Part shown: piece by piece, positions 13,212-54,645 of the stretch
Position numbering within the stretch: position 1 is the stretch's first letter
How the letters are laid out: every line of letters begins with the position of its first letter
Source of the DNA: Chloroherpeton thalassium
GTDB lineage: Bacteria > Bacteroidota > Ignavibacteria > Kapaibacteriales > UBA2268
Direction of reading: 5' to 3'
DNA length: 59,565 nt
Assembly (NCBI GenBank): GCA_020722095.1
Contig: DYLM01000005.1
Location: 1 to 59,565 of the forward strand
Position numbers and translations under genes: made by a program
Notes under the pieces: generated by a model
What the model saw: the letters and a program-made list of their open reading frames with translations, nothing else
What the model was told of the DNA's origin: nothing
Database searches by the model: none

Positions 13212-13220
13212 GATAACTCC

Positions 13221-25035: not shown

Positions 25036-25503
25036 TTAACTAACTTCTTCCAGATCAATTGTTCCTACATTTCCTGAAGCATCCGCATAAGCAGAAAAAT
25101 CAAAATTAGGAATAATATGACCATCCCTGGCCCAGGCGAAACTCAATTTCGTGCTCCTACACTTATTCAACGTAACAACAAAGGCTTTGTTATCCGTTGT
25201 CATGTGTAATAAGCATTCCCAAGTTCCTGGATAAGAAGTATCAGTTAGAGTTATTCTTGGCCCTGATCTCGTTCCGCCAAGTAGTTTGTGAATGCCTACA
25301 GCATTCAAATTGGCAAATTCTGCATTACCTGTAATAGATGCCGTATGAACTCTAACATCCACAGGATAAATAGCTGAGCTATATAGCAATGCTTGTTCAA
25401 AATTGAAATCAAGCGTAGTCCCTTGCATATATCCAAGAGTTACACTATCAAGCCGCATAATAGCCAATCCAAATTGTACAGACATATCTGCTCCTTTAAT
25501 CAA
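25036..25503 (-). CDS. Major tail (tube) protein
   Basis: This 155-aa beta-rich ORF lies directly upstream of the chaperones and is followed by a strong terminator. That layout is typical for a siphovirus. Confidence 0.6.
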   Translation of the reverse strand: MIKGADMSVQFGLAIMRLDSVTLGYMQGTTLDFNFEQALLYSSAIYPVDVRVHTASITGNAEFANLNAVGIHKLLGGTRSGPRITLTDTSYPGTWECLLHMTTDNKAFVVTLNKCRSTKLSFAWARDGHIIPNFDFSAYADASGNVGTIDLEEVS

Positions 25504-26854: not shown

Positions 26855-27508
26855 TCAACTCAATTGCTGATATTTTGATTTCAAGCTAAACAAGACATTT
26901 TTGATTATTGGATCATAAAATTGATCTATACTATTGAATTGATTTGTGAATCTTCTTTGATAATCGCCCATCTGTTCATAATCCGGTATTCCATTAGAAT
27001 AAAGTAATCTTTTCCAAAAAGAACAAACTTTAGCTGCTAACATATTTGCATATGCTACAATATCGCTTGGAACAGAAGTGAATCCATATGTATAAGCAAC
27101 ATCTACAGTATTAACTCCTTTGGTGAAATAAGTATGCAGAGATACATCATTCCCCAAAGTGGCATCAAAAGACAAAACTATCATTCCTGTTCTCTTATCT
27201 ACTTCAAAATCATCATGCTCCACTAAAATTGTAGGAGTAGCATCCTGAATATTATCTCTCAATCTTTCTATGCTAATCACAGGAAAATTCCTAACTATTA
27301 ATGTTCTGGCATATTCATAATCAATATTGTGTAATTCTGGATTAGAAGTATCAATTGTATGCATTCCAAAATCTCTTCCAAATAAAGCATCTATTCCTAA
27401 AATTTCAACCAGATTCTCTATTGATGCTTTTACAGCAGAGGTTAATTCTGTATCTGTTAATCCTGTAATTCCTTTAACAATTGTCCAATCAATATATTTA
27501 GCTGCCAT
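26855..27508 (-). CDS. Head-tail connector (gp6-like) protein
   Basis: It is the first head-completion gene by position. The ORF is 217 aa. Confidence 0.45.
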   Translation of the reverse strand: MAAKYIDWTIVKGITGLTDTELTSAVKASIENLVEILGIDALFGRDFGMHTIDTSNPELHNIDYEYARTLIVRNFPVISIERLRDNIQDATPTILVEHDDFEVDKRTGMIVLSFDATLGNDVSLHTYFTKGVNTVDVAYTYGFTSVPSDIVAYANMLAAKVCSFWKRLLYSNGIPDYEQMGDYQRRFTNQFNSIDQFYDPIIKNVLFSLKSKYQQLS

Positions 27509-28062
27509 TATGTATTCCTTTCAGAAAGAGAATTCAATGACATATGAAGCAAAGTTCTTGCCTCTCCATTAACAACCATAAAATCACGATAATAAGTTGA
27601 AAACCCAAATCTTCTATATAATCTTACTGCTTCTACATTGTCTTCAAATACTGTCAAAAATATCATATAATTATTTTTATAAACACCCAATTTATCAAAA
27701 AGCAAAGGAATACACAGACTCCCATATCCTTGTCTTTGAAAATTGGGCAATATTTTAAATCCAAGTTCTGCTGTTCTATCATATCTATCATATTTTATAT
27801 CACAGTATCCTATTGAAGTATTGTTGTCAGAAATAATCATTTTATATATGCAAATATCAGTACTATTAGCATATTTTTTACAATACCATTTTATGTGATC
27901 TTTGTAACTGATTTCTTCAGGATGAATCAAATTTTTTCTTATTTCTGGATGATTCCTCACAAAATAAATAAAATCTAAATCTGATTTAAAATTCTCTCCA
28001 GATTTTGCTGCTTCAACTAATACTAAACCCATATTGTACTCACAATATATCATTAACAGCAT
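27508..28062 (-). CDS. GNAT-family N-acetyltransferase
   Basis: The acetyl-CoA motif is FQRQGYGS, with ...AVRLYRRFGF downstream. The start is uncertain (28062, or the internal ATG at 28032). Confidence 0.7.
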   Translation of the reverse strand: MLLMIYCEYNMGLVLVEAAKSGENFKSDLDFIYFVRNHPEIRKNLIHPEEISYKDHIKWYCKKYANSTDICIYKMIISDNNTSIGYCDIKYDRYDRTAELGFKILPNFQRQGYGSLCIPLLFDKLGVYKNNYMIFLTVFEDNVEAVRLYRRFGFSTYYRDFMVVNGEARTLLHMSLNSLSERNT

Positions 28063-29161
28063 CTATAACAATATCTACATCTGATTGTTCCATCTTTAAA
28101 TGGCAAGGAAGTGTTATTAAATTTTCATAGACTTTTTCCGTAACAGGAAGTGGATCAACAACATATTTAGAGAATATCTCATATTTGTGATTAGGTATAT
28201 AATGAACTCCTGGATATATTCTTTGCTGATTCAATTCCTTCAACAATTTATTTCTATCTCCTTGCACAAAGCCTGCAGCAAGATGACCAGAATGGCAAGC
28301 CCCATTATAAAATGCAACCATTTTAACATTAATTAAACGTTTAGAATATTGTTCGATTATATGCCTACGATAAGAATTGTCATATTCTAAAGTTTCCAAA
28401 TTCCCTAAACAAATAGCAGCAGTCAAATCATTCATGTGATATTTATATCCAAGACAATCAACTCCATATTCCCAAGAATAATTTCCTTCACTAAATCTTG
28501 ATGAAGTATCTTTATTAATTCCCATCCATCTCAATTTCATTGCTCTTTTATATATTTCCTCATTATCTGTAACTAACATTCCTCCATCTGGAGAAGCAAG
28601 ATTTTTAACAGCATGAAAAGAAAATACTGATATATCTCCTGCTGTCCCTACCATTGTTCCTGTATCAGAGTATCTTGCTCCTAAAGCGTGTGCACAATCT
28701 TCTATGACAAAAATGCTTTTCTTTTTTTCTTTTATTTTTTGTATATTACCAAAATCAATAGGATAACCACCATAATGAACAATCATTGCTGCATCAAAAG
28801 ATTTAAAATAAGGATTGATAAGTAATTCATCAATATTCAAATTAACAGTTTCTGGGCATACATCAATAAAATAAGGAATTGAATTACAATATAAAATAAC
28901 AGCATTAGTAGAAACAAAAGTCATCGAAGTAGTAGCCACAACAGAACCTTTTTTAAGACCTCCACATATCGCAGCCAGATGAAGCGCTGAAGTACAACTA
29001 TTAGTTGCTACAGCATATTTTCTACCTATGTATTTCGCAAATTTTTCTTCAAATTCTTTAGTTTTCTTCCCCATTCCAACCCAACCACTATTAAGAACTT
29101 CATTGGCATAAACTTTAGCTTTTTCATTAATAACACTTTCAAATACATAAATACTTTTCAT
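28040..29161 (-). CDS. DegT/DnrJ/EryC1/StrS-family PLP-dependent sugar aminotransferase
   Basis: Motifs include NSGWVGMGKKTKEFE, CTSALHLA, EDCAHALGA and SFHAVKN (PLP lysine). The preferred start is ATG at 29161 after GGAGGGGG, sharing 1 nt with the upstream stop. Confidence 0.8.
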   Translation of the reverse strand: MKSIYVFESVINEKAKVYANEVLNSGWVGMGKKTKEFEEKFAKYIGRKYAVATNSCTSALHLAAICGGLKKGSVVATTSMTFVSTNAVILYCNSIPYFIDVCPETVNLNIDELLINPYFKSFDAAMIVHYGGYPIDFGNIQKIKEKKKSIFVIEDCAHALGARYSDTGTMVGTAGDISVFSFHAVKNLASPDGGMLVTDNEEIYKRAMKLRWMGINKDTSSRFSEGNYSWEYGVDCLGYKYHMNDLTAAICLGNLETLEYDNSYRRHIIEQYSKRLINVKMVAFYNGACHSGHLAAGFVQGDRNKLLKELNQQRIYPGVHYIPNHKYEIFSKYVVDPLPVTEKVYENLITLPCHLKMEQSDVDIVIDAVNDIL

Positions 29162-29781
29162 CACAGAGCCCCCTCCTTGTCCATTTTTGTTATTAAAGAT
29201 AAATACCATTTCTCTATTACACAATCATTTTCGACAATCAAATTTGATTGTTTTAAAAATTCTTGAAATTCTTTCATTTTTGGATCTATAATTCTCTTTA
29301 AAGGATTATTAGATCTTGTTTTTCTTAGTTGAAATCCAAAAATAATCTTTCCTTTATCGTTCAGCATATTAACTGCCTTTTGGGCAAATCCCAAATAATC
29401 TTCAACAAATTCTAATACATTGTGACAAATAATTAAATCAAATTTATGATTTTCTAATTCAATTATTTTCTCATTACTACAGAAAGAAGCTTGTATTGTT
29501 TTGATCCAATTACAATATTCTTTTGCAATTTTTAATCCAATTTCGCTAAAATCCAAACAAACAAAATCTCTATTCTGAAAAGAAAAACCTCTTTTCTTTA
29601 ATATGAAAGAGACCACACCAATTCCACAACCTATATCTAAAACACGATTGTGCTTATTCTTGAATACCCAATCGCATATTTTATTATATGCTCCACCATA
29701 ATCTTTTGCCAAGTTTGAAGGATTAATATTTTTTTGTTTGAATTTCTCATTCCAATATTCTGGGCAATTTTCTGCCTTCAT
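29161..29781 (-). CDS. Class I SAM-dependent methyltransferase
   Basis: Motif I is RVLDIGCGIGVVS. The start ATG at 29781 follows AAGGAG and overlaps the upstream stop (ATGA). Confidence 0.7.
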   Translation of the reverse strand: MKAENCPEYWNEKFKQKNINPSNLAKDYGGAYNKICDWVFKNKHNRVLDIGCGIGVVSFILKKRGFSFQNRDFVCLDFSEIGLKIAKEYCNWIKTIQASFCSNEKIIELENHKFDLIICHNVLEFVEDYLGFAQKAVNMLNDKGKIIFGFQLRKTRSNNPLKRIIDPKMKEFQEFLKQSNLIVENDCVIEKWYLSLITKMDKEGAL

Positions 29782-30761
29782 CTTTTCTCCTTCCATCTTT
29801 CATATATATCCAACAATTCTTTTGCTCTGTGATAATAAGTATGGTGATTTTCAATTAACTTTCTTCCTGAATCCCCTATCATTTGGGCTTTTTCTTCATT
29901 ATTAATCACCCAATCAACTTTCTCTATTAATTCTTTAATATTTCTGAATACAATTATATTTTCTCCATCTCGAAAAAAATTTTCTATTCCTTTATAATTA
30001 TGACAGACATAAGGTTTTCCACAAGCCATAGAATTCCACGTTCTGTTACTTGTATAATTCAAAATTTCGTCAAAAGCACTTATCCCCAAAACTGCTTTTG
30101 ATTTAGATACTACTTTAGAAAATTCTTTTCCATATTTATAACCAAGATAGTGTATTCTTGGAATATATTTCCAACTTGATGGTCCACAAACTGCTACATT
30201 AAATTTTTTTGCCAATTCTTGAATACATTCTAATCTGAATCTTGATAAAGGGAATCTATCTTTATAATTCCCTCCAACAAAAATTATATCCCAAATAACT
30301 TTCTCTTTTTTAGGAGAATAAACATCCAAATCCGTAGCAGTATGATATTCATATATATTTTTAACGCCAAATTTTTTATATTCTTCCCATTGTTTTGGAT
30401 GTTTATTATTTATCAAAATAGCATCACATACCTTACCAAGCCTTGAAGTAATTATACTTGCATTACCAGTTTGATCTCCATTGAATGTTACAATAAAAAT
30501 ATGCGGAAACAATCTTTTGATACGATGTAATACACAAGAAAATATCCTTTCTCCTTTATTAATAAATATTATATCAGGAACATCATTAATTATACATTCC
30601 TGCAAATAAATATTCATTAAAGTTATATCCTTATGATAAGTGTTACGAAAATCAAATATTTGAGTATCAAATATTCTTTCAAATCCATCTTTTCTATAAA
30701 AATCAGATATCCAAATTCCTTCAAACACACCTACATATAACAATTTATATTTCACATTCAT
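29778..30761 (-). CDS. CgeB/Glyco_trans_1_2-like glycosyltransferase
   Basis: The C-terminal segment NRTWNSMACGKPYVCHNYKGIENFFRDGENIIVF...HHTYYHRAKELL matches the CgeB-type signature. Confidence 0.6.
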   Translation of the reverse strand: MNVKYKLLYVGVFEGIWISDFYRKDGFERIFDTQIFDFRNTYHKDITLMNIYLQECIINDVPDIIFINKGERIFSCVLHRIKRLFPHIFIVTFNGDQTGNASIITSRLGKVCDAILINNKHPKQWEEYKKFGVKNIYEYHTATDLDVYSPKKEKVIWDIIFVGGNYKDRFPLSRFRLECIQELAKKFNVAVCGPSSWKYIPRIHYLGYKYGKEFSKVVSKSKAVLGISAFDEILNYTSNRTWNSMACGKPYVCHNYKGIENFFRDGENIIVFRNIKELIEKVDWVINNEEKAQMIGDSGRKLIENHHTYYHRAKELLDIYERWKEKR

Positions 30762-32008
30762 TTAATTACTTCTATCCTCTTCAGATTTTCCCCTTTATCC
30801 AAATTGATATATTCAGGAATATGCATATTAACAGAATCCATACGATATGTATCTGCATCTATAACCATATTACTAACAGTAGTTAGTATAGTAGATGCTC
30901 TGTCTTTAAAAGTATGATTTTTAGCAATTTGATTTCCTTTTCTTATTATTTCCAAAGCTGCTTTTTTATTTCTTAAATAAAAATTACACAGTTCTTTGAA
31001 TTCCTCCATATTAGAATATTGTATATCAATATCTCCAAAAATATCTTCAATTCCAATATTTTTTCTGATTATAGGAAGTCCTCCAGAAGCAAAAACATCA
31101 AATAATTTCATTGGAACAAATCCATTATCTTCTGATGTTTCGTGCCCATCTATCAAAACAATTTTAGCAGTTCTATATAAAACATTAAGTTTTTCATATG
31201 GATAATATTGCCCTGAAATCCAATTCTTAGGAATATAAGTATATTTTGGCAATTCCCATTTGGCTCCCCATATATTTATTTTACAATTTTTTCCAATACC
31301 AGAGTCAACTAACATTTTTGCAGAAATTCTACCATAAGGAGCTTCTGCTCCTCTGGCATTAGCAACCATTACAATATCATATTCTGAACCATATTCAAGA
31401 CCATCAGGGATAACATGATTTGTACAAGAAAACAAAGGAAAAGAAGCAACATATCTATGTAGTTCTTGCACTTTTGGCAGGTACTGTTTCGATAAACAAA
31501 ATATGTAATCATATTTACTTGCTTCTGATTTTGTCCATTTTTCCGGATGTGAATATAACCAACAAACATTAAAAGAAGTTGGATTATAACTTGCTATTCC
31601 ACTTTCTTTATGAAGAAATGGAGACCCAAATAAATATACTGTTATATCTGCTTGTGGAGGTGGAACTTCAACTACACATCCAAATTTCTCAAATTCTTTT
31701 AACAATTGAACCTTAACCCAATGATCACCCCAACACATTCTTGTTCTTTGGTCTATATCTGACCAAGATACTACATTTATTCTCCAATCAACATATCTCG
31801 GATTTGTTTTAATAATTTCTTGCAATGATCTTATTTTCTCATTACGATTTACACACTGTTTTTTATTTATTTGTTTTTTATCTGTAACAAATTCTGAATT
31901 TATCATATTATTAAAAGTAAAAACCTTTGTTGGAAGTCCAGGTTTTATATCTGGATTCAATATATGCTTATTCCCATTCTGGATAGCATCATTTCTGAAA
32001 TCACTCAT
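30758..32008 (-). CDS. Glycosyltransferase (GT1/CgeB-like C-terminal domain)
   Basis: The segment MKLFDVFASGGLPIIRKNIGIEDIFG...NHTFKDRASTIL supports the call. It has ATGA overlaps on both sides. Confidence 0.55.
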   Translation of the reverse strand: MSDFRNDAIQNGNKHILNPDIKPGLPTKVFTFNNMINSEFVTDKKQINKKQCVNRNEKIRSLQEIIKTNPRYVDWRINVVSWSDIDQRTRMCWGDHWVKVQLLKEFEKFGCVVEVPPPQADITVYLFGSPFLHKESGIASYNPTSFNVCWLYSHPEKWTKSEASKYDYIFCLSKQYLPKVQELHRYVASFPLFSCTNHVIPDGLEYGSEYDIVMVANARGAEAPYGRISAKMLVDSGIGKNCKINIWGAKWELPKYTYIPKNWISGQYYPYEKLNVLYRTAKIVLIDGHETSEDNGFVPMKLFDVFASGGLPIIRKNIGIEDIFGDIDIQYSNMEEFKELCNFYLRNKKAALEIIRKGNQIAKNHTFKDRASTILTTVSNMVIDADTYRMDSVNMHIPEYINLDKGENLKRIEVIK

Positions 32009-32814
32009 GGCAATCTCATTTGTTTACGTTCATATTCTGCTTTTTCCAAAGCCCCTTGTATAATAGACAATCTTCTTTTAACAAATTCTTCTCTATTTCC
32101 ACCTGGTTTTTCTTTCTGTCTAAATTCATTATATCCGCTATTCAAATATGTTCGTATTTCATTTAATGGATTGTTTGCAGCATCCATATCTACACAATAT
32201 CTTCTCATAGGAGCTAACACCAATGTATTGCTATATGCCATTTTTTTAATAAAATCAGGCGCCCAAAATCCTACATATTTTCCTCTTCCATCAGAAGCAA
32301 CATTCATTTTAAATGGACCAAGTCTTTCATACAGAGTCCTTTTCATATAAAATCCAGCAAGACCACCCCCTTCCAGCCTCATGCCAATTCTTTTTCCCTC
32401 TTTTATCATATATTCTTTTATAGCATCAGGATTAAGAGGACTGGAATAATAAAATGGTATGCATTCCACATTAGGAAAGGCATTAATAATTTTTTGTGCC
32501 TCTATGTCCCAATCTCTATGCATATAAAAATCATCACAAAGCAATAAAAACCAATCTGACTTGCTTGCATTTATTCCAATATTATTTCCTTCGGCACTTC
32601 CAACATTATTTTCAAGTAATATTAATTTAGAAATTAATCCTCTGTCATACATTTCTTTAAGCCAATTCACAGTCCCATCTGTAGAATGCTGATCAACAAC
32701 AATTATTCTACGTTTTAAAGTTACAGATGCCCAAACAGACCAAAAACATTTCTTCAAATATTCAAGTCTGTTATAAGTTACAATAATAATATCATTAATA
32801 ATTTCTGTTCCCAT
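32005..32814 (-). CDS. Family 2 glycosyltransferase
   Basis: Motifs are IIIVTYNRLEYLKKCFWSV, VVDQHSTDGT and LLCDDF (DxD-like). Confidence 0.75.
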   Translation of the reverse strand: MGTEIINDIIIVTYNRLEYLKKCFWSVWASVTLKRRIIVVDQHSTDGTVNWLKEMYDRGLISKLILLENNVGSAEGNNIGINASKSDWFLLLCDDFYMHRDWDIEAQKIINAFPNVECIPFYYSSPLNPDAIKEYMIKEGKRIGMRLEGGGLAGFYMKRTLYERLGPFKMNVASDGRGKYVGFWAPDFIKKMAYSNTLVLAPMRRYCVDMDAANNPLNEIRTYLNSGYNEFRQKEKPGGNREEFVKRRLSIIQGALEKAEYERKQMRLP

Positions 32815-32821
32815 ATATCAT

Positions 32822-33352
32822 CTATGGTTTAATTGATTCACAAATTATATCACCATTTGGGCGATATTCAACATGCTTTTTATTTGTCACTCTGGTTTCA
32901 CAAACTACACAACTTTCTACTTGAAATTTTGCTTTTTGCAAATAATATTTTAACAATCCTACTGTAAAAAGATTTCTATTCAGCATTCCAGAACCTTTAT
33001 CTTCCCATCCCAATACATTTCTTATGCCCCAATTTTTAAGATATTCATAATCATTATTTTCTTGTGATCTCAACCACTCTTGCAAATATATAACAGCATT
33101 AGGGCACCTTATAGTGAGTCTTCCTTGGTGGATAAGAATATTATACCAATGAGCAAGAGCTTTTTGAAAATGTTCAGGAGATATATGTTCAATCATATGA
33201 GATGTATAAATTCGAGAAACAGAATTAGGATCAAATCCTGTTTCTGAACAATCTGCTTTTATATCTGCTCTTGGATCATATAAATCTACAGTTATATATC
33301 CTAATTTACTTATTCCTGCTCCTATTTCTAAACAAATTCCTTTATTATTCAT
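32822..33352 (-). CDS. SAM-dependent methyltransferase
   Basis: Motif I is CLEIGAGISKLG and an acidic loop is VDLYD. The size (176 aa) is typical of the Methyltransf_11/23 type. Confidence 0.65.
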   Translation of the reverse strand: MNNKGICLEIGAGISKLGYITVDLYDPRADIKADCSETGFDPNSVSRIYTSHMIEHISPEHFQKALAHWYNILIHQGRLTIRCPNAVIYLQEWLRSQENNDYEYLKNWGIRNVLGWEDKGSGMLNRNLFTVGLLKYYLQKAKFQVESCVVCETRVTNKKHVEYRPNGDIICESIKP

Positions 33353-35637
33353 TTGACATCCCTAATGTCTGATTGATTATAATAAGGGTGCAATTTTAAT
33401 ATATCTGGAATAGAAAAAATATCTATATCTTCTGCCCAACTTCTCACTATCTGAGTTGGTTGAGTAGAATCAGAATGTTGTTTCCAATTTTCATATATCT
33501 TTTCTTTTACGACTTTTTCTATTCCTCTATTCTTATAATAACTCAATTTCTGATTAACATAATCTAATTTCCTGGCATATCCTGTATGATAAATAGGTTT
33601 CCCTTCCCAAATAGTTGTTACTACATATTGCTCTGTTACTGGACGATTATCATATTTTCTATTTTTAACAAAATAATTAAATGACCTTAGATGCCTCATC
33701 CCTTTTTGCCACTTCCAAACTCTGGGATGTTTTGTGCTCCACTTCCCTCCAGCATCTACTGCTTTTGTATGGAAATTAGTCCACAGGTGAATAAATGGCA
33801 TTTTTATCATTTCAACATTAGGATTATCAATCATATAATCAATCACTTTTTGTAACTCATCCCTGTGCCAAAATTCATCTGCGTCTATTTTTATATAAAT
33901 ATTCCCTCCCAGCTTATCAACTTTTTCAGCTATAGAATTTTGCATTTCTATTTTGTCTAACCAGACACCAGATTTAATAATAACAATTATTTTTCCACAA
34001 GGGTCTTGCAATCCATCTGAATTAATCAGCCAATCATATGTCCCATCATTACTGTGTCCGTTTTTTGAATATTTTTCATTCCCTTTCACTGCTCCTTCCA
34101 CTATAATAATGTTATCTACCAAATCATAAACATTTTTTATTACATATGGCAAATAATCAAAACAATTAAATGCAAGTATACCCACCACTATTTTTGCCCT
34201 TCTTTTATTGCTCAAAGCACTTAAAACAGAATCTAAACATATAAAAGGATTAGAAAACAAAGGCACACTCCCTTTTCTTTCAATTTTGTCTTTATGAACT
34301 TTTTCTAACACATTAACAAAATCTTCTGGATTTCCAAGTTCTGCATAGTGAAGATCATTTCCGTAAACTTCTCTCAATACTGGTAAATCATAGCATACAA
34401 CTTGTTTCCCCATATACAATGCTTCCATTGGAGGAATGCCAAAGCCTTCAAATTGGGAAGGATGGATGAGGGTTTTGCAAGAAGACAATATTTTATACTT
34501 TTCTAAATCATTTACAACTCCGTGAACAATTACTTTAACTTTAGTATTGACTCCATCATATTTATTAAGCACACGAATATCATCGTTTCTAACTTTTCCA
34601 ATAAAATGTACAACACATTTCATTCTTTTGTCCAATATTTTCAATATGTCAAATGGCTTAGCAAAATCGCTAAGTCTCTTACACATAACTATATCATCTG
34701 AATATTCTGGATAAGGAGAATTACCATTTGTCAAAACATCATTTGCTACATTGGTGTTTATACAAGGATAAACAACTTTATAAGAAACAGGATCATCATC
34801 TCTTAACCACTCCATTAAATATTTTTTACTTAAATTGGAAGGAGATATTCTTAAATCCGCAGCTTCAGCTGCTATTTTAAATGATTTCCAATATTCTTCT
34901 GTGCTATCTGGTCCATCATGATACAATTTCACAAAATTAGGAGACTCAAACATATATATAATCAATGGAAGATTCCATTTTTTAGAATATTCATAAGCAG
35001 CCACACCAGAAGCATGAGGAACCCCCAAAACAACATCGAATGAATTCCTTCTTTCTTTTAAACAAAAAGATGGATCTACAATATTCACTAATTTTTTAAA
35101 ACCAGAATAACTTTCAAAATCATTTTGAAAAGGAACAGTCCTATCCGTAACTAAAGTAACATGACAATAATCCGCCAAAAGAATTGCTTGTTGATATATA
35201 GAATATCTGCCACCAGTATAATAATTACTATTCTGATCCATGAAAATAGCAATTTTTGTTTCCTGTGATATCATAGTATTGAATGATTTCAAAGGAACAA
35301 GTTTTTTCAGCAAATCAGAATTTAATTGATTTGTTATCTTTGGATTAGTCAAATTTTGTGAAGATTGAGGTTGAAGATTAAATTTGGTTGGAGATATTAC
35401 AGAATTTATTCCAAGTAAATAAGATAAATTTTTAAGAACAGATAAAAATTGATTTGATCCCAAATGAGAAACAGTCTTCCAATTAAATTGAATATCTAAT
35501 GTTTCGTCTGTTCTTATTATGTAATTAATAATTTCTTTATAATTATCTGGAATGAGAATATATTCGGAATTTTTTTTTCCTACACCAACTACATCCGAAT
35601 TCAATATTCTTTTGTTTCCTGTATCATCTCTGTTCAT
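33349..35637 (-). CDS. Bifunctional glycosyltransferase (N-terminal GT4, C-terminal GT2)
   Basis: The GT4 E-x7-E region is HPSQFEGFGIPPMEALYMGKQVV. The GT2 region is IVVGILAFNCFDYLP...IKIDADEFW. The preferred start is ATG at 35637 after AGAGAGGA, because the track TTG start at 35679 lies in the capsid-gene terminator stem. Confidence 0.75.
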   Translation of the reverse strand: MNRDDTGNKRILNSDVVGVGKKNSEYILIPDNYKEIINYIIRTDETLDIQFNWKTVSHLGSNQFLSVLKNLSYLLGINSVISPTKFNLQPQSSQNLTNPKITNQLNSDLLKKLVPLKSFNTMISQETKIAIFMDQNSNYYTGGRYSIYQQAILLADYCHVTLVTDRTVPFQNDFESYSGFKKLVNIVDPSFCLKERRNSFDVVLGVPHASGVAAYEYSKKWNLPLIIYMFESPNFVKLYHDGPDSTEEYWKSFKIAAEAADLRISPSNLSKKYLMEWLRDDDPVSYKVVYPCINTNVANDVLTNGNSPYPEYSDDIVMCKRLSDFAKPFDILKILDKRMKCVVHFIGKVRNDDIRVLNKYDGVNTKVKVIVHGVVNDLEKYKILSSCKTLIHPSQFEGFGIPPMEALYMGKQVVCYDLPVLREVYGNDLHYAELGNPEDFVNVLEKVHKDKIERKGSVPLFSNPFICLDSVLSALSNKRRAKIVVGILAFNCFDYLPYVIKNVYDLVDNIIIVEGAVKGNEKYSKNGHSNDGTYDWLINSDGLQDPCGKIIVIIKSGVWLDKIEMQNSIAEKVDKLGGNIYIKIDADEFWHRDELQKVIDYMIDNPNVEMIKMPFIHLWTNFHTKAVDAGGKWSTKHPRVWKWQKGMRHLRSFNYFVKNRKYDNRPVTEQYVVTTIWEGKPIYHTGYARKLDYVNQKLSYYKNRGIEKVVKEKIYENWKQHSDSTQPTQIVRSWAEDIDIFSIPDILKLHPYYNQSDIRDVK

Positions 35638-35654
35638 GTTATCCTCTCTAAACT

Positions 35655-35708
35655 CAAAAATAAAAATCTCTGGTAGCAATCCTTTGGCGCATAAGGATGC
35701 TACCAGAG
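35655..35708 (-). terminator. Strong rho-independent terminator after the major capsid gene
   Basis: A 16-bp stem CTCTGGTAGCA(A)TCCTT/AAGGATGCTACCAGAG (35668-35708) is followed on the minus strand by ATTTTTATTTTT. It sits in an 84-nt unusually GC-rich stretch (35709-35791). Confidence 0.8.
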
Positions 35709-35791
35709 TCGGAGGCAGCCACTACCAGTCGGCATCTGGCTTGTGAGGGGAACACACACAATTCGTGGCTATGGGACATTCTATGAACTGT

Positions 35792-36799
35792 TTAGCTCTC
35801 CGTAGATGGTGTATCCAGCGACCAAATCTGGCAAATTGCATCTTGGTGTTCTACTGCCATATCTGCTCTTTGACTGATTACGATGCGCCTTGCATCATAT
35901 TCAATCATATCTTCAGATTTTAACTTGATCAGTCTACGGTCACCAATTATTACATTGGATTTATGCGTTCCAACAGCATAACCATCAGTACAAAAATCAC
36001 TTTGTATGACAGTCACCTTGCCATAAATCTTTCCAAATTCACCAGTAAAGATTGTGGCATTTGGTCCATATTTATCCAATGTAACCAATTTAGGATCATC
36101 AAGCAGTTGATTAGCGCTCCACGGATTGACAATCAAGACAATATCACTCATTCGCCTACCATATTTCCCCAAATTATAGAGAAGTTGGCGAACAAGAAGA
36201 GTAGACATCTCTACACCAGATGCATTCACACGATTAGCAGCACGGTTTCCAGAACTCAGCGTTCCTACAATATCGCCACCTAAAGTCAGCAATCCATTCC
36301 ATGCCAATCGATGATCTTTTGAATACCAGTTAGCATCTGATGCTGCTGCTTCTGAAACTGCTGTTGCAGTATGAGACCTATCTCCCACAATACAAGTCTC
36401 TTCTTCTGCTTCTGCCATTCCAGCAGCAAAATGATTTCGGAAAATAGCATTCATGTCTTGAGAAGCATCTTCAAATATTTCCTCAGATGCTTTCAACTGA
36501 GCCATGAATTTGCGTGCAGTCATTCGGACTGTTCCGGTAGTCATTGCTGTTTCAACTGCTTCTACTGTTGCCTCTGTGCTCTCATAATATACCTGTGGAC
36601 CACTCAAGATTTTTGGAAAATCAAGTGTTTTTCCAGGCATGTATATGGTTCGGAAAACTTGTCGAAAAAACATTTGCTCCCGCACCAAATCAATGAATGT
36701 TCTTGCAAGAGGAGTTGGTAAAAAGTCTCCACCAGTTCCGCCAGTGGTGTTAAGAGCTTTTTGCAAAGCGTCTCGCAACTCATGATTATTTAGTTCCAT
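35792..36799 (-). CDS. Major capsid protein, HK97 fold
   Basis: GGTGGDFLPTPLARTFIDLVREQMFFRQVF...LDFPK has the look of the HK97 capsid family, and the position after protease/scaffold fits. The preferred start is ATG at 36799 (MELNNHEL), rather than the track TTG at 36838. Confidence 0.8.
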   Translation of the reverse strand: MELNNHELRDALQKALNTTGGTGGDFLPTPLARTFIDLVREQMFFRQVFRTIYMPGKTLDFPKILSGPQVYYESTEATVEAVETAMTTGTVRMTARKFMAQLKASEEIFEDASQDMNAIFRNHFAAGMAEAEEETCIVGDRSHTATAVSEAAASDANWYSKDHRLAWNGLLTLGGDIVGTLSSGNRAANRVNASGVEMSTLLVRQLLYNLGKYGRRMSDIVLIVNPWSANQLLDDPKLVTLDKYGPNATIFTGEFGKIYGKVTVIQSDFCTDGYAVGTHKSNVIIGDRRLIKLKSEDMIEYDARRIVISQRADMAVEHQDAICQIWSLDTPSTES

Positions 36800-36856
36800 T
36801 ATTACAATCCTTAATAAAAGGAGAATGTCGGCATTCAACCGAAAAAAAAGGAATTA

Positions 36857-37459
36857 TTAACGATTAGGAATCATCATCTGTGCCATGGTAGAAGTCAGAA
36901 TAGACATTCTATCCTCTGCTGACATCGCATTCCACTGATCTTCACTAATCTCGCTGGCATCCAAATTAATTGCTCCATCAGGCAAAGGAGCATCTTGTGC
37001 CAAATTCTTGATCAAACGATTGTCCTTACCAATCACAAAAGATTTACGTATTGGTTTTGGAGCTTGCTGTGCTTTGAATGCAGCTTCAACAGCCTTCTGA
37101 ATTGTTTCAGCAAGACTATCAGCACTTTGATTTTGTGTAGCAGTTGGAGCTGTTGGAGTTGCTGGAGTTGTAGTTTCTGTAGTTTTAGTTAACTCTTCTT
37201 TATCTGCCAATCCCTTTACCAATTCTGCAAGCTGAGTAATAGGATCAACCAGAGTTTGTAATGCCTTAGTCAAAGTTTCCTGTGTAACATACTGAGATTG
37301 CCCATCCAACTGAGCTGCTTTAGCAATTGTTTCAGTAGGTTTAGAAACCTGACTAAAAACATCTGCAGCAAGACCAGTGGTAAAATTTTTAACCAATTGT
37401 TCTACTTTTTCGTTGATTTGCTTGCCTGTTAATTTTTCCATAAAGACAAGTCCTTTCAC
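36857..37459 (-). CDS. Scaffolding or head decoration protein with a Thr/Pro-rich tract
   Basis: It lies between the protease and capsid genes and is helical and Q/A/K-rich. It carries the tract TKTTETTTPATPTAPTAT. The start is either 37459 (GTG) or 37441 (ATG). Confidence 0.5.
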   Translation of the reverse strand: MKGLVFMEKLTGKQINEKVEQLVKNFTTGLAADVFSQVSKPTETIAKAAQLDGQSQYVTQETLTKALQTLVDPITQLAELVKGLADKEELTKTTETTTPATPTAPTATQNQSADSLAETIQKAVEAAFKAQQAPKPIRKSFVIGKDNRLIKNLAQDAPLPDGAINLDASEISEDQWNAMSAEDRMSILTSTMAQMMIPNR

Positions 37460-39177
37460 AAAGACAATGATTTGACTGTGTAAATAACTTCTTTACTCAT
37501 CATTTCGGCAAGTGTTTTTATTTCTGTTGCTAATTGATCTGCTAATCCTTTTATATCTTTAGATTTTTCATCTACAGAATATTCCGGATTATCATCCCAA
37601 ACAATTTGATAAACAGAAGATGTAAATTGATCTAAAATATCATACATCGTCGAGCGTGTTTTTCTTGCTTCAGCAGCTTCTGCAAGAGTAGCTACAAGTA
37701 GTTTTTGAAAATCAACATACTCATAACTTTTCTCATCGATCCCAAGAGATTTTCTGATCTCAAGAAGCTTGTTGAAGGACAATTTATCTCCGTCAATTTG
37801 AGATTGATGGAATGATTTATCCAAAAGTTCCATGTGGACTTTAATACCTCCATCTTCATCCACAAACTTATAAGGATATTTCCAAGCATCTTTATTAACA
37901 GAAGTATTTACCAAAAAACAGCTACGTGGTAACTTATTAAGATCAATTTCTGAGGCAGCAATCTGTTTAGCTGTCACACCTGAAAAGGTATCTACTGCTT
38001 TTTGGAAATCAGCCCAAAATTGATTTGACTCATCATTAGACTTTTCATCCAAATCAGCATCCTTTTCAAAATACACCTGCCCAATTTGAGATTCTAATCC
38101 CATGCTTTTTATCAATGAAGCATATCCTTCTTCATCGTGAGCAGGATCAAAATCTGCAAACATTTCATCGAACAACTTTTTGTTCATAGTCACTAAAGCT
38201 ACATCAGAACCAGGGAGTGCTCCAATTGGAACAACACTTACTTCCAGAATATCTCCATCAAAGATATGACGGATATTCTTCTGTAATTTTTCATCCCACA
38301 CTCTGACAGCCTTGGTAAGAAAACCACCAATGCTATATTGCAGCTTATAGTTTTTATTCAATCTGTCAAGCAATTTAGCGACTTGAACATTCCCTGTAGG
38401 ATTAGTCTCTGACCATTCCTTTTCTAAGGCTGTAACAGGAGCAAAAGTATTGGGTCCACCTTCGCTGCGAATTACTTGTCCAATCATATGATCGCTATCT
38501 CTCTTGTGATCTACAAACACAGGGAGATTTTTGCAACTTTCATTCATTTTCCGAATAAAATCCTGATGAATAACATCATTTTGGCGATCAAGCCAAGTCC
38601 CTGATGCAATTCCTTTCAAATATTTTATTCCGTTCTCTTCTGTGACAGATGACTTAGTAAAAGCAATAGGGATGTCAATCCTAAATCTCGCTTGACTATT
38701 ACTTGTGTCTGATTTGAATACTTGAATCAATGGTATCTCCTTAGCTTTTCTATACAAATCAGCTTCAATTGGTTTTAATCTCTTGCGGAAATGCCATTTA
38801 CCACCTTCTTGATAGATGTACTTTTTTATGGCTTTCCAAGTTTTTAATCGTGCTGCCATTGGATCTCTGTGCTTAGAAAACAAACCATTATAAAGTTTGA
38901 CCCAAGCAACTGATAAATTTCCAGGCAATTCAAGAACATCATCTGGAATAATGGTATCAACTTTGGAATTCAATTCCGCAGACAAGAACTTTTTGACCCA
39001 TTTATCTCCTTGTTTTTTATATTTCCTCTTGACGTTTGCCCAGCCAGCAATTCTGGCTTCATCTTCTGTAGCCCCAGCTGACAAAGCAGAATTGAAGGCT
39101 GCCACAAAACGTTTCTGGGCTCCAAGAGGAATATTCTTGATAGCATCTGGAATATTATCCGGAACACTATATGGCAT
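37456..39177 (-). CDS. Prohead serine protease (HK97/S78-like) with two N-terminal ChaB-like domains
   Basis: ChaB unit 1 is MPYSVPDNIPDAIKNIPLGAQKRFVAAFNSAL...AGWANVKRKYKKQGDKWV. Unit 2 is ELPGNLSVAWVKLYNGLF...TWKAIKKYIYQEGGKWH. The protease core is DRQNDVIHQDF...FVDHKRDSDHMIGQV. The start ATG at 39177 follows GGAGG. Confidence 0.65.
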   Translation of the reverse strand: MPYSVPDNIPDAIKNIPLGAQKRFVAAFNSALSAGATEDEARIAGWANVKRKYKKQGDKWVKKFLSAELNSKVDTIIPDDVLELPGNLSVAWVKLYNGLFSKHRDPMAARLKTWKAIKKYIYQEGGKWHFRKRLKPIEADLYRKAKEIPLIQVFKSDTSNSQARFRIDIPIAFTKSSVTEENGIKYLKGIASGTWLDRQNDVIHQDFIRKMNESCKNLPVFVDHKRDSDHMIGQVIRSEGGPNTFAPVTALEKEWSETNPTGNVQVAKLLDRLNKNYKLQYSIGGFLTKAVRVWDEKLQKNIRHIFDGDILEVSVVPIGALPGSDVALVTMNKKLFDEMFADFDPAHDEEGYASLIKSMGLESQIGQVYFEKDADLDEKSNDESNQFWADFQKAVDTFSGVTAKQIAASEIDLNKLPRSCFLVNTSVNKDAWKYPYKFVDEDGGIKVHMELLDKSFHQSQIDGDKLSFNKLLEIRKSLGIDEKSYEYVDFQKLLVATLAEAAEARKTRSTMYDILDQFTSSVYQIVWDDNPEYSVDEKSKDIKGLADQLATEIKTLAEMMSKEVIYTVKSLSL

Positions 39178-39253
39178 GATAACCTCCACGATTAAGATGA
39201 CAATAATATAAAAAGTTTTTCGACTATTCAAAGAAAAAAAATAATTTTTCTCT

Positions 39254-40780
39254 TTAAAGGCGTGATAAAATATATTTGCGTCTCTGTTTTCTTCTATTAT
39301 TATAAATCTTTGTTATTGCTTCATTTATAATTGAAGGTTCAACCCTCTCTAATCCCGTAGGAATAATCCCGCCAGTCATCAATCCAAATGACATCCATTT
39401 TTTAACATCTAATTTTCCATTCTCATCCAACAACTCATTACTATTAACTGGAATAGGAATATTACTATTAGGAAGATTAGAAATTGGTTGCATTTGATTC
39501 AGCAAATAAGGAACATTTCCCCACTCTACAGGCTCCATGCCTAATTGTTGTAAAACCATATTGATAGTAAATACTCCCTGACGTAGATAGATTTCATGTA
39601 TTTGGGCTTCCATTTTTCTATCTATTGCATCAATTCCCTCCCAACTCAAATAAATATCATTATATCCAAAATTCTTATTTGACCATATAGCAAGAGTATT
39701 GAATTGATTAGAAAAAGAAAATAATAAAGGAATCAAAGCATCTTTCTTAAATTGCTCTTCTTGCTGTGAAGAGTTCAATCTGCCTTGATTAACCTCTATT
39801 ACACCAAGAACAAATGGTTGCATATGATACACAGCCATTATTTTAGATAATAACCATCGAGAATAATCTGAAAATTGCATATCTTCATTGGTCATTCCAA
39901 TCTTTTCAAATTTAATAGATCCATGCTCAGAGCCAACCATAATTGGCTTATGTGGCTCTCCTCTCAGTTCTTTATTCCACCATTCTTTAAATCTTTCCAA
40001 TGCTGGACCACCTTGGCCTGCTCCAAGATTTTCAAACAACATAGCAAATCTTGGAGTAGCATCATTGATGAAGCGTTTTATATTAAAATCGCTGGCATAA
40101 AGTTCAGCCGTCACAGTCTGGCGCAAAGATTCCAGCGGAGATAATCCATATACTCTACGTGGACGGGGATATTGCATAAAATAGCACATTTCATCTATAG
40201 CAAAATGAGCTACAGTTTTCCCTCCCATATCTACCTGCCAAAATGCATCATTGAAAGATTTGTATATCCCTTTCTTATCAACATTTTTTCTGATACTATC
40301 TCCACTAACTGCATATAATTCCTCTACTCCATTAGCTCCATTCACCAACTCCATAGAGCCCGCATCCCAAACAAGAATATCTGTATAAATTCCTGTTAAA
40401 ATAGAGGCCAATGATTCTTGAGATTTATTAGGAACTGCCAACAAATTCTCAATAGTCTCTATCCGAAGTTTTTGCTCATCTGTAGGCTTATCTTTTGGAT
40501 TCTTCAGAATAGGCTTCACCAAAGGCTTAACTGCTACTGCCCGTTTAGCAATTTTATCTACACAAGCTCTAACCCAAGAATTGAGTCTATACATATTCTC
40601 CATTGTAGGAAAATCAAGAGCAGATTCCGATACTTTAGTGGGGGCAAAAGCTTTTCCTCCACTCCAAACAAATTCTTTATCATCCGTAATACTACTCTTT
40701 TTATCCGCAGATGAAGTTGATACATCAACTTTCAAAGATTTTATAAAACTTATTCCAGTTCCAGACATTTTTTTCCTCAC
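39254..40780 (-). CDS. Portal protein
   Basis: This 508-aa ORF lies between the large terminase and the protease, and its size and composition look portal-like. Confidence 0.7.
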   Translation of the reverse strand: MRKKMSGTGISFIKSLKVDVSTSSADKKSSITDDKEFVWSGGKAFAPTKVSESALDFPTMENMYRLNSWVRACVDKIAKRAVAVKPLVKPILKNPKDKPTDEQKLRIETIENLLAVPNKSQESLASILTGIYTDILVWDAGSMELVNGANGVEELYAVSGDSIRKNVDKKGIYKSFNDAFWQVDMGGKTVAHFAIDEMCYFMQYPRPRRVYGLSPLESLRQTVTAELYASDFNIKRFINDATPRFAMLFENLGAGQGGPALERFKEWWNKELRGEPHKPIMVGSEHGSIKFEKIGMTNEDMQFSDYSRWLLSKIMAVYHMQPFVLGVIEVNQGRLNSSQQEEQFKKDALIPLLFSFSNQFNTLAIWSNKNFGYNDIYLSWEGIDAIDRKMEAQIHEIYLRQGVFTINMVLQQLGMEPVEWGNVPYLLNQMQPISNLPNSNIPIPVNSNELLDENGKLDVKKWMSFGLMTGGIIPTGLERVEPSIINEAITKIYNNRRKQRRKYILSRL

Positions 40781-41400
40781 TAATTTGGCATTATTTTAGA
40801 GTTGACATAAGATAAAACAATAATTGCAATCCCATGAGAAATTACTTCAGAAAATGATCCTAATAATGTTCTAATTATCAACGATAATGTTAATAATCCT
40901 ATTCCAGATGCAGTAATCACAGATAAAACATTTTCCGGAACAAGTTTTGTAAGTTTACCAAACAAATCAAATTTAGATTTTTTAATCATTAAAGATTCAA
41001 CAGCTTCCTCATCTGCCTTGATGCTATCCGAAAGAATTTTCTTCAGTTTATCGCTTTTCTTTGAATCAGCAATTTCCTTTTTACTTCTAAAAATAACATC
41101 CTCAGCAGGAAAACCAAAAATCCTTTCTGAACACTTAATACATTCACAATCTATAGGGTGTTCATCTTCAAGTATATCAGAAACTGTTAATACAGTATCA
41201 GATTCTGGAATTTTAGTCAAAAATTCGTGTGCTGTGATTATTTCTCTCATTATTTTCCCTTCAGATATACACATTGAATAGATTCTCTTATAATTTTTTA
41301 TTTTTAGCTCTGATGTGATTTCGCCAATAACTATTCTCTCAACTTTATAGCTACAGTTCTTCCAGCTACAAATAATAGCATATAACTCTTCTAAAAGCAA
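40780..41400 (-). CDS. Hypothetical protein with a C-terminal transmembrane segment
   Basis: The C-terminus is VITASGIGLLTLSLIIRTLLG...IAIIVLSYV. The start is uncertain (internal ATGs at MCISEG and MREII). Confidence 0.4.
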   Translation of the reverse strand: MLLEELYAIICSWKNCSYKVERIVIGEITSELKIKNYKRIYSMCISEGKIMREIITAHEFLTKIPESDTVLTVSDILEDEHPIDCECIKCSERIFGFPAEDVIFRSKKEIADSKKSDKLKKILSDSIKADEEAVESLMIKKSKFDLFGKLTKLVPENVLSVITASGIGLLTLSLIIRTLLGSFSEVISHGIAIIVLSYVNSKIMPN

Positions 41401-43145
41401 ATACCAGAAGTTAAAGGAATTTCCTTAATAGCAATAAATGATGAAGCAGTTATAGAATCAGCAACATCTTTTGATCCCTCTTCTGTACCTTCTGTTTCCA
41501 ATCTTTCCCATGAGGATTCTGGATGATCAACTTTGCCTTGTTCTACTTTTATTAATTCCTTGAACTCCCTTATAGCAACAGAATGTTCATACCCTCTAAA
41601 CAAACCAGCATAAAAAAGATTTTTAATAGAATCGTAAGGAGCAGTTGTCTTATCAACAGACAATTCTTCTGACAAAATACCTGACTGAATTAATCTCTGT
41701 ATTTCACCCAAACTGTTCCAGCCATCAAATGTGACTTTATAAATATTAACGCCTTGTTTTCTTACATATAATATTAAATTGGCAATTTCAGAAAATTGTA
41801 CCTCATATCCTGATGGAGCAAATATTTGTAAAGCAAAATCTAAAACTACTCCTTTTCTCTCATCTTTATTTGCATTACCATCTATAATAAATCCCAATTC
41901 TTTCAATTTTTCTATAGATTGCGGATGAGGATTTGGCACCATCATTTCTGGATGTACCATGGCAATACCTACACAATCTCCTCCTGTAGCTATTTTACCT
42001 TTTGCCAAATCTACATGTATAGCACAATATTTCCCCTCCATTTTCTTCCAAAACCAATCTTTAAACTGCAAATTAACTATATTATCAGTTCTTACTATAT
42101 TATTAACAAATGGATTTTCTCCCATTTCTTTCCTAAAGCACCAAGGAATAACAAATTTCTGTTTTATGAATCCACCCCCAACATCCCCTGTATCCTTACA
42201 CTCATATGTCCACTGGGCTTTTTCAGGATTTCTTTGATAATGTCTTAAAAAATTTTGTTTAGGTTTCCTGGGATTGACTTCCCATGTAGCTGCATTAGAA
42301 GAAAAAACTCTGGGATCATTCAATCCTTTTTTGTATTCTATTGTCATAGGACAATTAGCACCATATTTATATGACATCAAAACCAATTTCCCTATTTTAG
42401 GAAATCTTGAATCTAATGTCTCTCTAATAGAAATCAATTGACTACGAACTGTTGCTGCCGGAGATGCTCCAATCTCATCTGCTACAGCCCAAAAAAGATT
42501 TAATCCTTCTCCTGTATATTGCTTACTATTTAAACTATGACAAGTTATTCCAGATGGGAATACGACATATTGTGTTTGTAAATCTTTCCCCTCTCTAATA
42601 TCTACTCCTTGTTCTAAAAAGAAATTTTTTCCTGTAGTAGGATTTATTGTTCTTTTCAATATACTTTTAAAATTCTTGAAGAAAACGTCTCTTGCCTGAT
42701 CTCTATCCTTTGATACATTTATTATATCAATAGGAGAATCAAGCCCAATAGCCCCTTCTCCAAGATATTTTGATAATCCTTTTTGTGGATCATCCATGCA
42801 AAGCAGTTTTACAACAATATAAACCAACATTTTTGCAATGGTTCTATCTTTTCCAGCCCCCTTTCCCCAGTAGCAATGAATTTCATCATAATCTGTATTC
42901 CAAACAAGAGGATTTATTCCACATGCTTTTTCTGCAATTTCTAATTGCAGTGGAAACAATGGTTCGGGAAACCACTTAGAAAAAAATTCCTTTATTGTTG
43001 GGGGTTTTATTTTCCATATTGAATCATATTTGTTTCTTGAAACTTCTTCCTCATATTTAGTAGATTTATTTGATCCAAATGCCTTTAATAACCCTCCAAT
43101 ATATGCCGACCTGGCACTTTCAGCAACTTTTATATCTCTGCTCAT
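41391..43145 (-). CDS. terL: Terminase large subunit
   Basis: The Walker A-like motif is WGKGAGKDRT and the Walker B-like motif is FWAVADEIG. A C-terminal nuclease-like region contains AIHVDLAKG. The protein is 584 aa. Confidence 0.8.
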   Translation of the reverse strand: MSRDIKVAESARSAYIGGLLKAFGSNKSTKYEEEVSRNKYDSIWKIKPPTIKEFFSKWFPEPLFPLQLEIAEKACGINPLVWNTDYDEIHCYWGKGAGKDRTIAKMLVYIVVKLLCMDDPQKGLSKYLGEGAIGLDSPIDIINVSKDRDQARDVFFKNFKSILKRTINPTTGKNFFLEQGVDIREGKDLQTQYVVFPSGITCHSLNSKQYTGEGLNLFWAVADEIGASPAATVRSQLISIRETLDSRFPKIGKLVLMSYKYGANCPMTIEYKKGLNDPRVFSSNAATWEVNPRKPKQNFLRHYQRNPEKAQWTYECKDTGDVGGGFIKQKFVIPWCFRKEMGENPFVNNIVRTDNIVNLQFKDWFWKKMEGKYCAIHVDLAKGKIATGGDCVGIAMVHPEMMVPNPHPQSIEKLKELGFIIDGNANKDERKGVVLDFALQIFAPSGYEVQFSEIANLILYVRKQGVNIYKVTFDGWNSLGEIQRLIQSGILSEELSVDKTTAPYDSIKNLFYAGLFRGYEHSVAIREFKELIKVEQGKVDHPESSWERLETEGTEEGSKDVADSITASSFIAIKEIPLTSGICF

Positions 43146-53246: not shown

Positions 53247-53256
53247 AAAATTCCTC

Positions 53257-53442
53257 TCAATTTGAAAGTACACGATCAAATATTTCTTGTATTTTTTCTT
53301 CTTCCATTTTTGATATTCCTATACACTTCTTCCTTTTCATTTTATTAAGAAAATCTTTTTCTATTGGAGTACACTTACTCCATTTAAGTTCTATCCAGTT
53401 TTCAATTGTATCTAATAATTCTTCTGGAGTTGATCTTTTCAT
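53257..53442 (-). CDS. Small hypothetical protein
   Basis: This is a tightly packed 61-aa ORF. Confidence 0.35.
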   Translation of the reverse strand: MKRSTPEELLDTIENWIELKWSKCTPIEKDFLNKMKRKKCIGISKMEEEKIQEIFDRVLSN

Positions 53443-54634: not shown

Positions 54635-54645
54635 ATTTCTTCTTC

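Follow-up and report, generated by a model that had tools for sequence, protein, structure and literature searches.

A block of eight minus-strand glycan genes lies at positions 27508-35637 of the window, the 59,565 bp of contig DYLM01000005.1 analysed here in full, between the major capsid gene and the head-tail adaptor gene of an uncultured tailed phage. The enzymes of this island probably O-glycosylate the capsid and the tail tube in the cytoplasm with a diversifying glycan, a reading that is held with moderate confidence. Glycosylation of virion proteins had already been proposed in the initial annotation of the DNA, and the proposal is supported by the enzyme families, by a transferase anchored beside the capsid gene, by serine-ended tails on two structural proteins, by the solubility of the enzymes and by the absence of a DNA-modification marker from the scanned window genes. 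Every test moved toward virion-protein glycosylation and none toward the alternatives. The window is a single metagenomic contig with about 31% GC, and nearly all of its genes are on the minus strand. The features of the region, in the direction of transcription, are as follows.

35792-36799, minus strand: major capsid protein, HK97 fold (PF05065)
35656-35708, minus strand: hairpin and T-run (RNA fold), between the capsid gene and the glycosylation genes
33349-35637, minus strand: anchor enzyme, glycosyltransferase family 4 (GT4) plus GT2-like, 762 amino acids (aa); PF00534 and PF13692
32822-33352, minus strand: small putative S-adenosylmethionine (SAM)-dependent methyltransferase, 176 aa; PF08241, 20.0 bits against a cutoff of 21.2
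32005-32814, minus strand: GT2 glycosyltransferase, 269 aa; PF00535, E = 2.5e-19
30758-32008, minus strand: CgeB-like glycosyltransferase (Glyco_trans_1_2), 416 aa; PF13524, E = 1.1e-13
29778-30761, minus strand: CgeB-like glycosyltransferase (Glyco_trans_1_2), 327 aa; PF13524, E = 9.5e-26, and PF00534, E = 2.8e-9
29161-29796, minus strand: class I SAM-dependent methyltransferase, 211 aa; PF13847, PF13489, PF08241 and related families, E of about 1e-12 to 1e-13
28040-29164, minus strand: pyridoxal phosphate-dependent DegT-family sugar aminotransferase, PseC-like, 374 aa; PF01041, 298.7 bits
27508-28062, minus strand: GNAT N-acetyltransferase, PseH-like, 184 aa; PF00583, E = 1.1e-10
26855-27508, minus strand: head-tail adaptor (phrog_442, E = 4.9e-8), coupled to the last island gene through TAATG
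25036-25503, minus strand: putative tail-tube protein ending in ...IDLEEVS, just upstream of chaperone-like and 1391-aa tape-measure-sized genes

The coordinates and gene order of the block agree with the initial annotation, as do the two flanking genes, identified by profile match. Its count of nine genes does not hold: the open reading frames (ORFs) give eight, and so does its own list of families. The genes are tightly joined in the manner first described, with four ATGA overlaps (33349-33352, 32005-32008, 30758-30761 and 29778-29781) and single-base overlaps of the form TGATG or TAATG at 29161 and 27508; the sole intergenic gap inside the block is 7 nt long (32815-32821). Alternative upstream ends exist for three genes, namely the class I methyltransferase (start codon at 29796 or 29781), the aminotransferase (29161 or 29164) and the acetyltransferase (28032 or 28062).

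The terminator reported after the capsid gene was confirmed as a structure. The intergenic fold has a z-score of -3.2, none of 200 shuffled sequences being as stable, and consists of a hairpin at 35708-35668 (a 16-bp stem interrupted by one bulge, with a loop of 8 nt) and an A-T5-A-T5 run at 35667-35656. It was missed by a simple terminator scan and found by direct folding of the region. Related contigs (designated by L numbers) carry different hairpins at the same intergenic site; a T-run follows the hairpin in L001, L004 and L010 and is not evident in L007 and L008. The hairpin is probably a leaky intrinsic terminator that reduces expression of the enzymes relative to the capsid protein.

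The first gene of the block encodes the anchor of the system. The 762-aa protein consists of a variable N-terminal region (residues ~1-127), a GT4 domain of the GT-B fold (~128-475) and a GT2-like domain of the GT-A fold (~483-762). Its AlphaFold model (predicted local distance difference test, pLDDT, 84.2) shows two alpha/beta domains after a poorly predicted N-terminus of about 127 residues. An alignment of 28 homologues has an invariant E397-x7-E405 in the GT4 domain and an invariant D585-x-D587-E588 in the GT-A domain. The N-proximal transferase domain has the two-Rossmann GT-B fold and the E-x7-E motif of the GT4 type in CAZy, and Foldseek matched this half to MshA, BshA, PglA and similar enzymes with E-values down to 1e-14. 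Foldseek of the whole model reported the GT4 half only, and the GT-A half was assessed with a separate profile. The GT2-like domain of the window protein scores 17.8 bits with PF00535, below the cutoff of 23.3; the anchor homologues of L007, L010, L012 and L036 match this family confidently. Among solved structures the best relative of the GT-A half is GmaR (E = 4.7e-7 and 8.1e-5 with the full-length and domain profiles, respectively), with whose DADE motif D585-x-D587-E588 aligns. SunS scores 1.3e-4 with the full-length anchor profile and only 0.17 with the GT-A domain profile. GmaR is the flagellin O-GlcNAc transferase of Listeria and SunS is a peptide S-glycosyltransferase; both act on proteins or peptides. 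The anchor is proposed to be the initiating, protein-directed transferase.

The position of the anchor is conserved among relatives. About 100 capsid homologues with 45-80% identity were found in a large protein database, many of them on contigs of 87-99 kb, and the capsid neighbourhoods of the window and of L001, L004, L007, L008, L010, L012, L015, L035, L036 and L037 were compared. In all 11 distinct genomes (window included; capsid 46-80% identical) the two-domain transferase lies 0-3 genes downstream of the capsid gene, which rules out an insertion peculiar to the window genome. The initial annotation had suggested seeing whether relatives lack the island at this junction: all ten close relatives keep the anchor, and it is the accessory content that varies, from no companion gene to at least nine, as in the following examples.

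L007: anchor only, no accompanying glycan genes
L036: a CgeB-like gene and a GNAT-like gene (weak matches), plus an unannotated ORF
L004: six genes in the window order, without the small methyltransferase
L035: seven additional genes, of which three are CgeB-like, one encodes a methyltransferase, one has no annotation and the others are DegT and GNAT
L008: a cupin gene, then several GT2 and CgeB-like genes
L010: epimerase/dehydratase genes, an FdtA-like isomerase and a methyltransferase
L001: nine or more additional genes

When the window is compared with its nearest relatives, identity is 77-80% for the capsid proteins, 45-48% for the anchors and 27-52% for the accessory enzymes. In the distant phages L013 and L014 (capsid ~30% identical) no recognisable transferase occupies the capsid-adjacent site. 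A scan of GTDB genomes with the capsid profile returned one close relative (L015), the rest having at most 30% identity apart from a 39-residue fragment (L034). As far as gene order and identities indicate, the block is ancestral to the lineage as a component of the head module, and its accessory genes are exchangeable. A T4-type lysozyme gene lies inside the glycan block of L037 (16739-17215).

The capsid lineage spans 30% to 63% GC (L008 and L015 compared with the window, L036 and L007), which implies that the lineage, and with it the capsid-adjacent transferase, covers very different hosts. This bears on a rival explanation, that the enzymes modify a polymer of the host envelope (wall teichoic acid, S-layer or another surface glycan) during infection, which could block superinfection or prevent progeny from sticking to the debris of lysed cells. 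GT4 and GT2 enzymes without membrane segments do glycosylate teichoic acids, and the GT4 domain matches TarM, among others, in the PDB (E ~2e-9); pathways for cell-surface glycans are the usual setting of PseC/PseH-like and CgeB-like enzymes, and the window has a second sugar-gene cluster at 53963-56633. The explanation is nevertheless considered unlikely. The anchor stays beside the capsid gene across genomes whose hosts and envelopes must differ widely, the conserved C-terminal serines on capsid and tube described below would be left unexplained, and to our knowledge the surface-modifying genes of phages are accessory genes of temperate phages and not fixed parts of a head operon. Moreover, no island protein has a membrane segment (the highest 19-residue Kyte-Doolittle mean is 1.48), and a Pfam scan found no lipid-carrier priming, flippase, polymerase or exporter genes in the island. 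Because no hydrophobic segment is present in any of its proteins, the chemistry is expected to be soluble and cytoplasmic.

Evidence for acceptors on the virion comes from the ends of two structural proteins. The AlphaFold model of the capsid protein (pLDDT 82.6) has the capsids of DT57C and T5 as best structural matches. The last eight residues are LDTPSTES (codons 35795-35818), and residues 327-335 form a coil after the last beta-strand. In the capsid alignment S335 is invariant (32 of 32) within the consensus L-D/E-x-P-S-x-x-S, the two residues preceding it varying freely. Among nine distant homologues, eight are without a terminal serine and none ends in P-S-x-x-S. The putative tail-tube protein behaves similarly: in an exhaustive HMMER search a terminal serine was present in ten of the 11 closest cluster representatives, all ten with a D/E-x-S ending, typically G-D-x-S, whereas the six lowest-scoring of the retrieved sequences all lacked it. 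L007, L036 and L037 have tube proteins with a GDVS terminus, so that four anchor-carrying genomes, with the window, have the tube serine tail. Of the 52 window ORFs only 4 have a terminal serine, among them the adaptor, whose serine is not conserved in relatives. It is proposed that the C-terminal tail of the capsid protein is the glycan acceptor and that of the tube a second acceptor.

Another phage protein, such as a scaffold, a decoration protein or the tail fibres, might instead receive the glycan, the terminal serines being unrelated. A Thr/Pro-rich stretch, TKTTETTTPATPTAPTAT, resembling mucin-type O-glycosylation sites, occurs in the 200-aa product of the gene directly upstream of the capsid gene (36857-37459), and large Kelch/BNR-repeat proteins are encoded in the tail-fibre region. 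By its position the 200-aa protein is most likely a scaffold, hence absent from mature particles, and the lineage-specific serines, carried by the two virion proteins of highest abundance, are the simpler candidates. A different acceptor is therefore judged improbable.

The accessory enzymes are those named in the initial annotation: Pfam returns every family and PHROG and NCBIfam agree, with two weak points, and the total of five glycosyltransferase domains stands (two in the anchor, one GT2 and two CgeB-like). As to the pair of methyltransferases, the enzyme at 29161-29796 is assigned confidently; the small one at 32822-33352 falls just below the Pfam cutoff and is backed by homologues, that of L012 (50% identical) having confident Methyltransf_11/23 matches. 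The best NCBIfam match of the aminotransferase is PseC, the UDP-4-amino-4,6-dideoxy-N-acetyl-beta-L-altrosamine transaminase, at 276 bits, below the equivalog cutoff of 423.5, which places the protein in the DegT family and short of PseC itself. Likewise, the acetyltransferase matches PseH best at 46 bits, below the cutoff of 93.1, and is classed as GNAT and not as PseH. Pseudaminic acid itself is not predicted, because none of PseB, PseG, PseI and PseF is present. No 4,6-dehydratase was found in the window among the ORFs longer than 200 aa that were scanned, which are all but a 233-aa ORF and the tape-measure-sized gene; a dehydratase would accordingly have to be a host enzyme or be encoded in the missing third of the genome.

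The enzymes could also serve to glycosylate the phage DNA, as a hypermodified base that evades restriction. Phage GT-A and GT-B enzymes are known to place diverse, even multi-sugar, glycans on 5-hydroxymethylpyrimidines (bioRxiv 10.1101/2023.12.21.572611). A weak match to the nucleotide-modification-associated family Nmad2 (20.1 bits against a cutoff of 26.1) lies at 40780-41400, between the terminase-sized and portal genes, and precursor-making genes could sit off the incomplete contig. Genes for DNA-glycosylating transferases are usually clustered with replication genes and with either a C5-methyltransferase plus 5mYOX dioxygenase pair or a thymidylate-synthase homologue (bioRxiv 10.1101/2023.12.21.572611). 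No such DNA sugar-hypermodification cluster was seen: the C5-methyltransferase, 5mYOX and thymidylate-synthase families are absent from the scanned window ORFs of at least 100 aa (50 of 52, on an incomplete contig). The Nmad2-like gene is not kept at this position in the relatives, and five transferase domains with amino-sugar tailoring between capsid and adaptor would be unusual for DNA modification in both place and size. This explanation is regarded as very unlikely. Both DNA and host-envelope glycosylation, which the initial annotation had kept as alternatives, are less likely than glycosylation of virion proteins.

For glycosylation of the capsid and tail tube, the following sequence of events is envisaged. 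Late transcription would pass the leaky hairpin and give a low, translationally coupled output of the eight soluble enzymes alongside the head and tail genes. The 762-aa enzyme would begin the glycan on the flexible tails, L-D/E-x-P-S-x-x-S-COOH in the capsid protein and D/E-x-S-COOH in the tube; its GT2-like domain would most likely put the first sugar on serine, and the GT4 domain would then add a second. The GT2 enzyme and the two CgeB-like transferases may lengthen or branch the chain. From a 4-keto-6-deoxy precursor, whose dehydratase would be supplied by the host or encoded off the contig, the PseC-like aminotransferase and the PseH-like acetyltransferase would make an N-acetylated amino-deoxy sugar nucleotide, and the two methyltransferases would cap sugars. 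The anchor is fixed across the lineage and the accessory genes are exchanged and diverge quickly, and related phages are therefore predicted to display different glycans, in the way that O-antigen loci give rise to serotypes in bacteria.

Several points weigh against this scheme. The support is metagenomic sequence throughout: gene content, synteny, catalytic motifs and the conserved acceptor-like tails are observed, and the modified protein and residue, the order of the steps, the sugars and the enzyme activities are predictions. Genes in the unassembled part of the genome could alter the picture, the contig having 59.6 kb against 87-99 kb in related contigs. Wall teichoic acids, as the match to TarM illustrates, and DNA are further substrates of soluble GT4 and GT2 enzymes. 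The likeness to GmaR is modest (19.6-25.6 bits with the domain profile) and confined to the nucleotide-binding half, and for this reason says little on the acceptor; nor does the variable N-terminal region of the anchor resemble a conserved domain for docking on the capsid. The link between serine tails and transferase could reflect a single ancestral event and is for that reason not independent evidence, and a conserved terminal serine could serve assembly or stability.

Self-encoded virion glycosylation in phages is documented experimentally, in the literature searched, only in a few mycobacteriophages, where the effect studied is antibody recognition. Che8, Corndog and Myrna are described in PMC12363180 and PMC11256854, which cite Freeman et al. 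2023, as glycosylating capsid and tail-tube proteins with their own transferases. These phages are the nearest functional precedent: as in the window, the glycosyltransferases are soluble and encoded by a tailed phage, and capsid and tail tube are the targets, which is established experimentally there and predicted here. In Che8 the transferase genes are found towards the right genome end (PMC11256854), away from the capsid gene, whereas the anchor of the window lineage is fixed beside it; a placement of the Che8 transferases beside the capsid gene was considered and rejected on the same source. The initial annotation had contrasted the two systems by the number of transferases. The window does have more, but the difference is one of arrangement too and not of size alone: it has five transferase domains and amino-sugar synthesis genes, with a content that varies strongly among relatives. 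Methyltransferases may accompany the mycobacteriophage transferases as well. The hosts in the window lineage are uncultured sediment organisms, for which antibody evasion is implausible as a selective force. Sequence search gave no homology to Che8 gp110 or Corndog gp38: tblastn of the anchor and of one CgeB-like enzyme against 50,697 phage records gave no mycobacteriophage or other actinophage match, only three short matches (8-10% of the query) to unannotated human-gut phage contigs. An independent origin of virion glycosylation in unrelated environmental phages is suggested by enzymes that have no detectable sequence homology to those of mycobacteriophages.

The closest parallel in enzyme repertoire is found in giant viruses, in which chlorovirus PBCV-1 A064R/A061L and Mimivirus L136, L142 and R141 glycosylate capsid or fibrils (PMC9614988). 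Glycosylation of structural proteins there is cytoplasmic and virus-encoded, as predicted for the window; transferases are multi-domain (A064R has two GT domains and a methyltransferase domain), separate methyltransferases cap sugars, and an aminotransferase and an N-acetyltransferase make 4-acetamido-4,6-dideoxy sugars. In contrast to the window, these are eukaryotic viruses with double-jelly-roll capsids, chlorovirus glycans are N-linked, the glycan genes are scattered or in separate clusters instead of standing between capsid and connector, and Mimivirus encodes its own 4,6-dehydratase (R141).

Flagellin O-glycosylation offers a second parallel. In Listeria the soluble cytoplasmic GT2-type enzyme GmaR acts on Ser/Thr of a polymerising surface protein, and GmaR, PseC and PseH of flagellin systems are the closest matches of the GT-A domain, the aminotransferase and the acetyltransferase; the acceptor is flagellin there, and phage capsid and tube are proposed here. 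O-antigen and capsule loci come closest to the island in layout, with a fixed position, conserved flanks and exchangeable transferase and tailoring genes that diverge much faster than the flanks. They differ in having a lipid-carrier priming enzyme, flippase, polymerase or exporter. The island has neither the membrane priming transferase, flippase and polymerase nor the ABC exporter of a lipid-linked polysaccharide locus, and all its proteins are soluble; the window glycan would be assembled directly on protein.

A wider proposal is put forward only tentatively: that the block is a capsid serotype locus in a widespread sediment phage lineage of ~90-100 kb, in which a bifunctional transferase acting on the terminal serine of capsid and tube, together with an exchangeable cassette of zero to at least nine genes, produces a phage-specific glycan. 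If true, the locus would be the phage counterpart of O-antigen diversity and would imply a selective agent in nature that reads phage particles by their sugars. Candidate selectors of variable sugar coats in sediment are host sensors of capsid protein, proteases, grazers, and adhesion to particles or mucus. The trait would here be a fixed part of the head module, with glycan genes that diversify far faster than the capsid. As a resource, the 762-aa enzyme, a candidate protein O-glycosyltransferase, and the two short C-terminal peptides proposed as its acceptors could aid glyco-engineering of phage particles.

The host is likely bacterial. This is favoured by bacterial-type replication and lysis genes, among the latter the T4-type lysozyme of L037, and by the hairpin terminators after the capsid gene in several members of the lineage. 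The bacterial-type features of the window are listed here.

363-1028: LuxR/GerE helix-turn-helix protein
1140-2069 and 2971-4482: bacterial-type DnaG primase with CHC2 zinc finger, and DnaB-like helicase
51049-51720: SLT lytic transglycosylase

Two related contigs were binned in metagenome-assembled genomes (MAGs) labelled Lokiarchaeota and Hodarchaeales, and a third relative in one labelled 'uncultured bacterium'. An extension of the serotype proposal, in which part of the lineage infects Asgard archaea as the two MAG labels would have it, is less likely, and we lean toward binning artefacts as the source of the archaeal labels. In the published accounts of verdandiviruses and of Fenrir and Nidhogg, verdandiviruses have genomes of ~20 kb and are described without such transferase genes, and Fenrir has transferases and no identified capsid protein; the capsid-protein search of the phage collection returned no such Asgard virus. 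Given the bacterial-type replication and lysis genes, an Asgard virus is the less likely reading.

No isolated phage resembles the window genome in nucleotide, capsid or tblastn searches of the phage collection. A nucleotide search of 27000-37000 against its 50,697 records gave zero matches, and the capsid protein found only T5-like capsids at 24-28% identity. Neither the capsid protein nor the terminase-sized protein yielded a confirmed relative in scans of IMG/VR, no identical record turned up when the window capsid protein was looked up exactly, and the window has no tRNA genes. The terminase-sized protein (41391-43145, 584 aa) has no Pfam match in the window scan; the corresponding proteins of relatives are annotated with PF27249 (MJ0330_N), whose name comes from a Methanocaldococcus protein, and the large terminase is a putative assignment. 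A 591-aa protein (37456-39231) with an N-terminal ChaB domain (E = 3.5e-16) and a weak prohead protease (S78) signal occupies the expected protease/scaffold position, and the same fusion occurs in relatives. In the tail-fibre region (10091-15134) large Kelch- and BNR/sortilin-repeat proteins are encoded, and a separate ConA-like lectin (Laminin_G_3) protein at 46558-47253; together they suggest that the phage binds host carbohydrate.

The second sugar-gene cluster, ~18 kb from the island, may contribute to the glycan pathway of the island or to another pathway. It comprises four genes.

53963-54634, minus strand: methyltransferase
54646-55344, minus strand: WbqC-like protein (PF08889, E = 4.6e-65)
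55358-55981, minus strand: PIG-L/LmbE-type de-N-acetylase
55974-56633, minus strand: methyltransferase

Inteins recur in these genomes. One interrupts the SNF2-family helicase of the window (5118-7808), the terminase-like gene of L013 (1361-4897) contains inteins, and in L037 a gene with an intein-splicing domain (2400-3578) lies directly upstream of the terminase-like gene. A 303-aa protein with a caspase (Peptidase_C14) domain (52368-53279, E = 2.5e-21) is unusual for a phage. Among the replication genes, an ADP-ribosylglycohydrolase-family protein (2069-2971, E = 1.3e-8) could oppose an ADP-ribosylating host defence.

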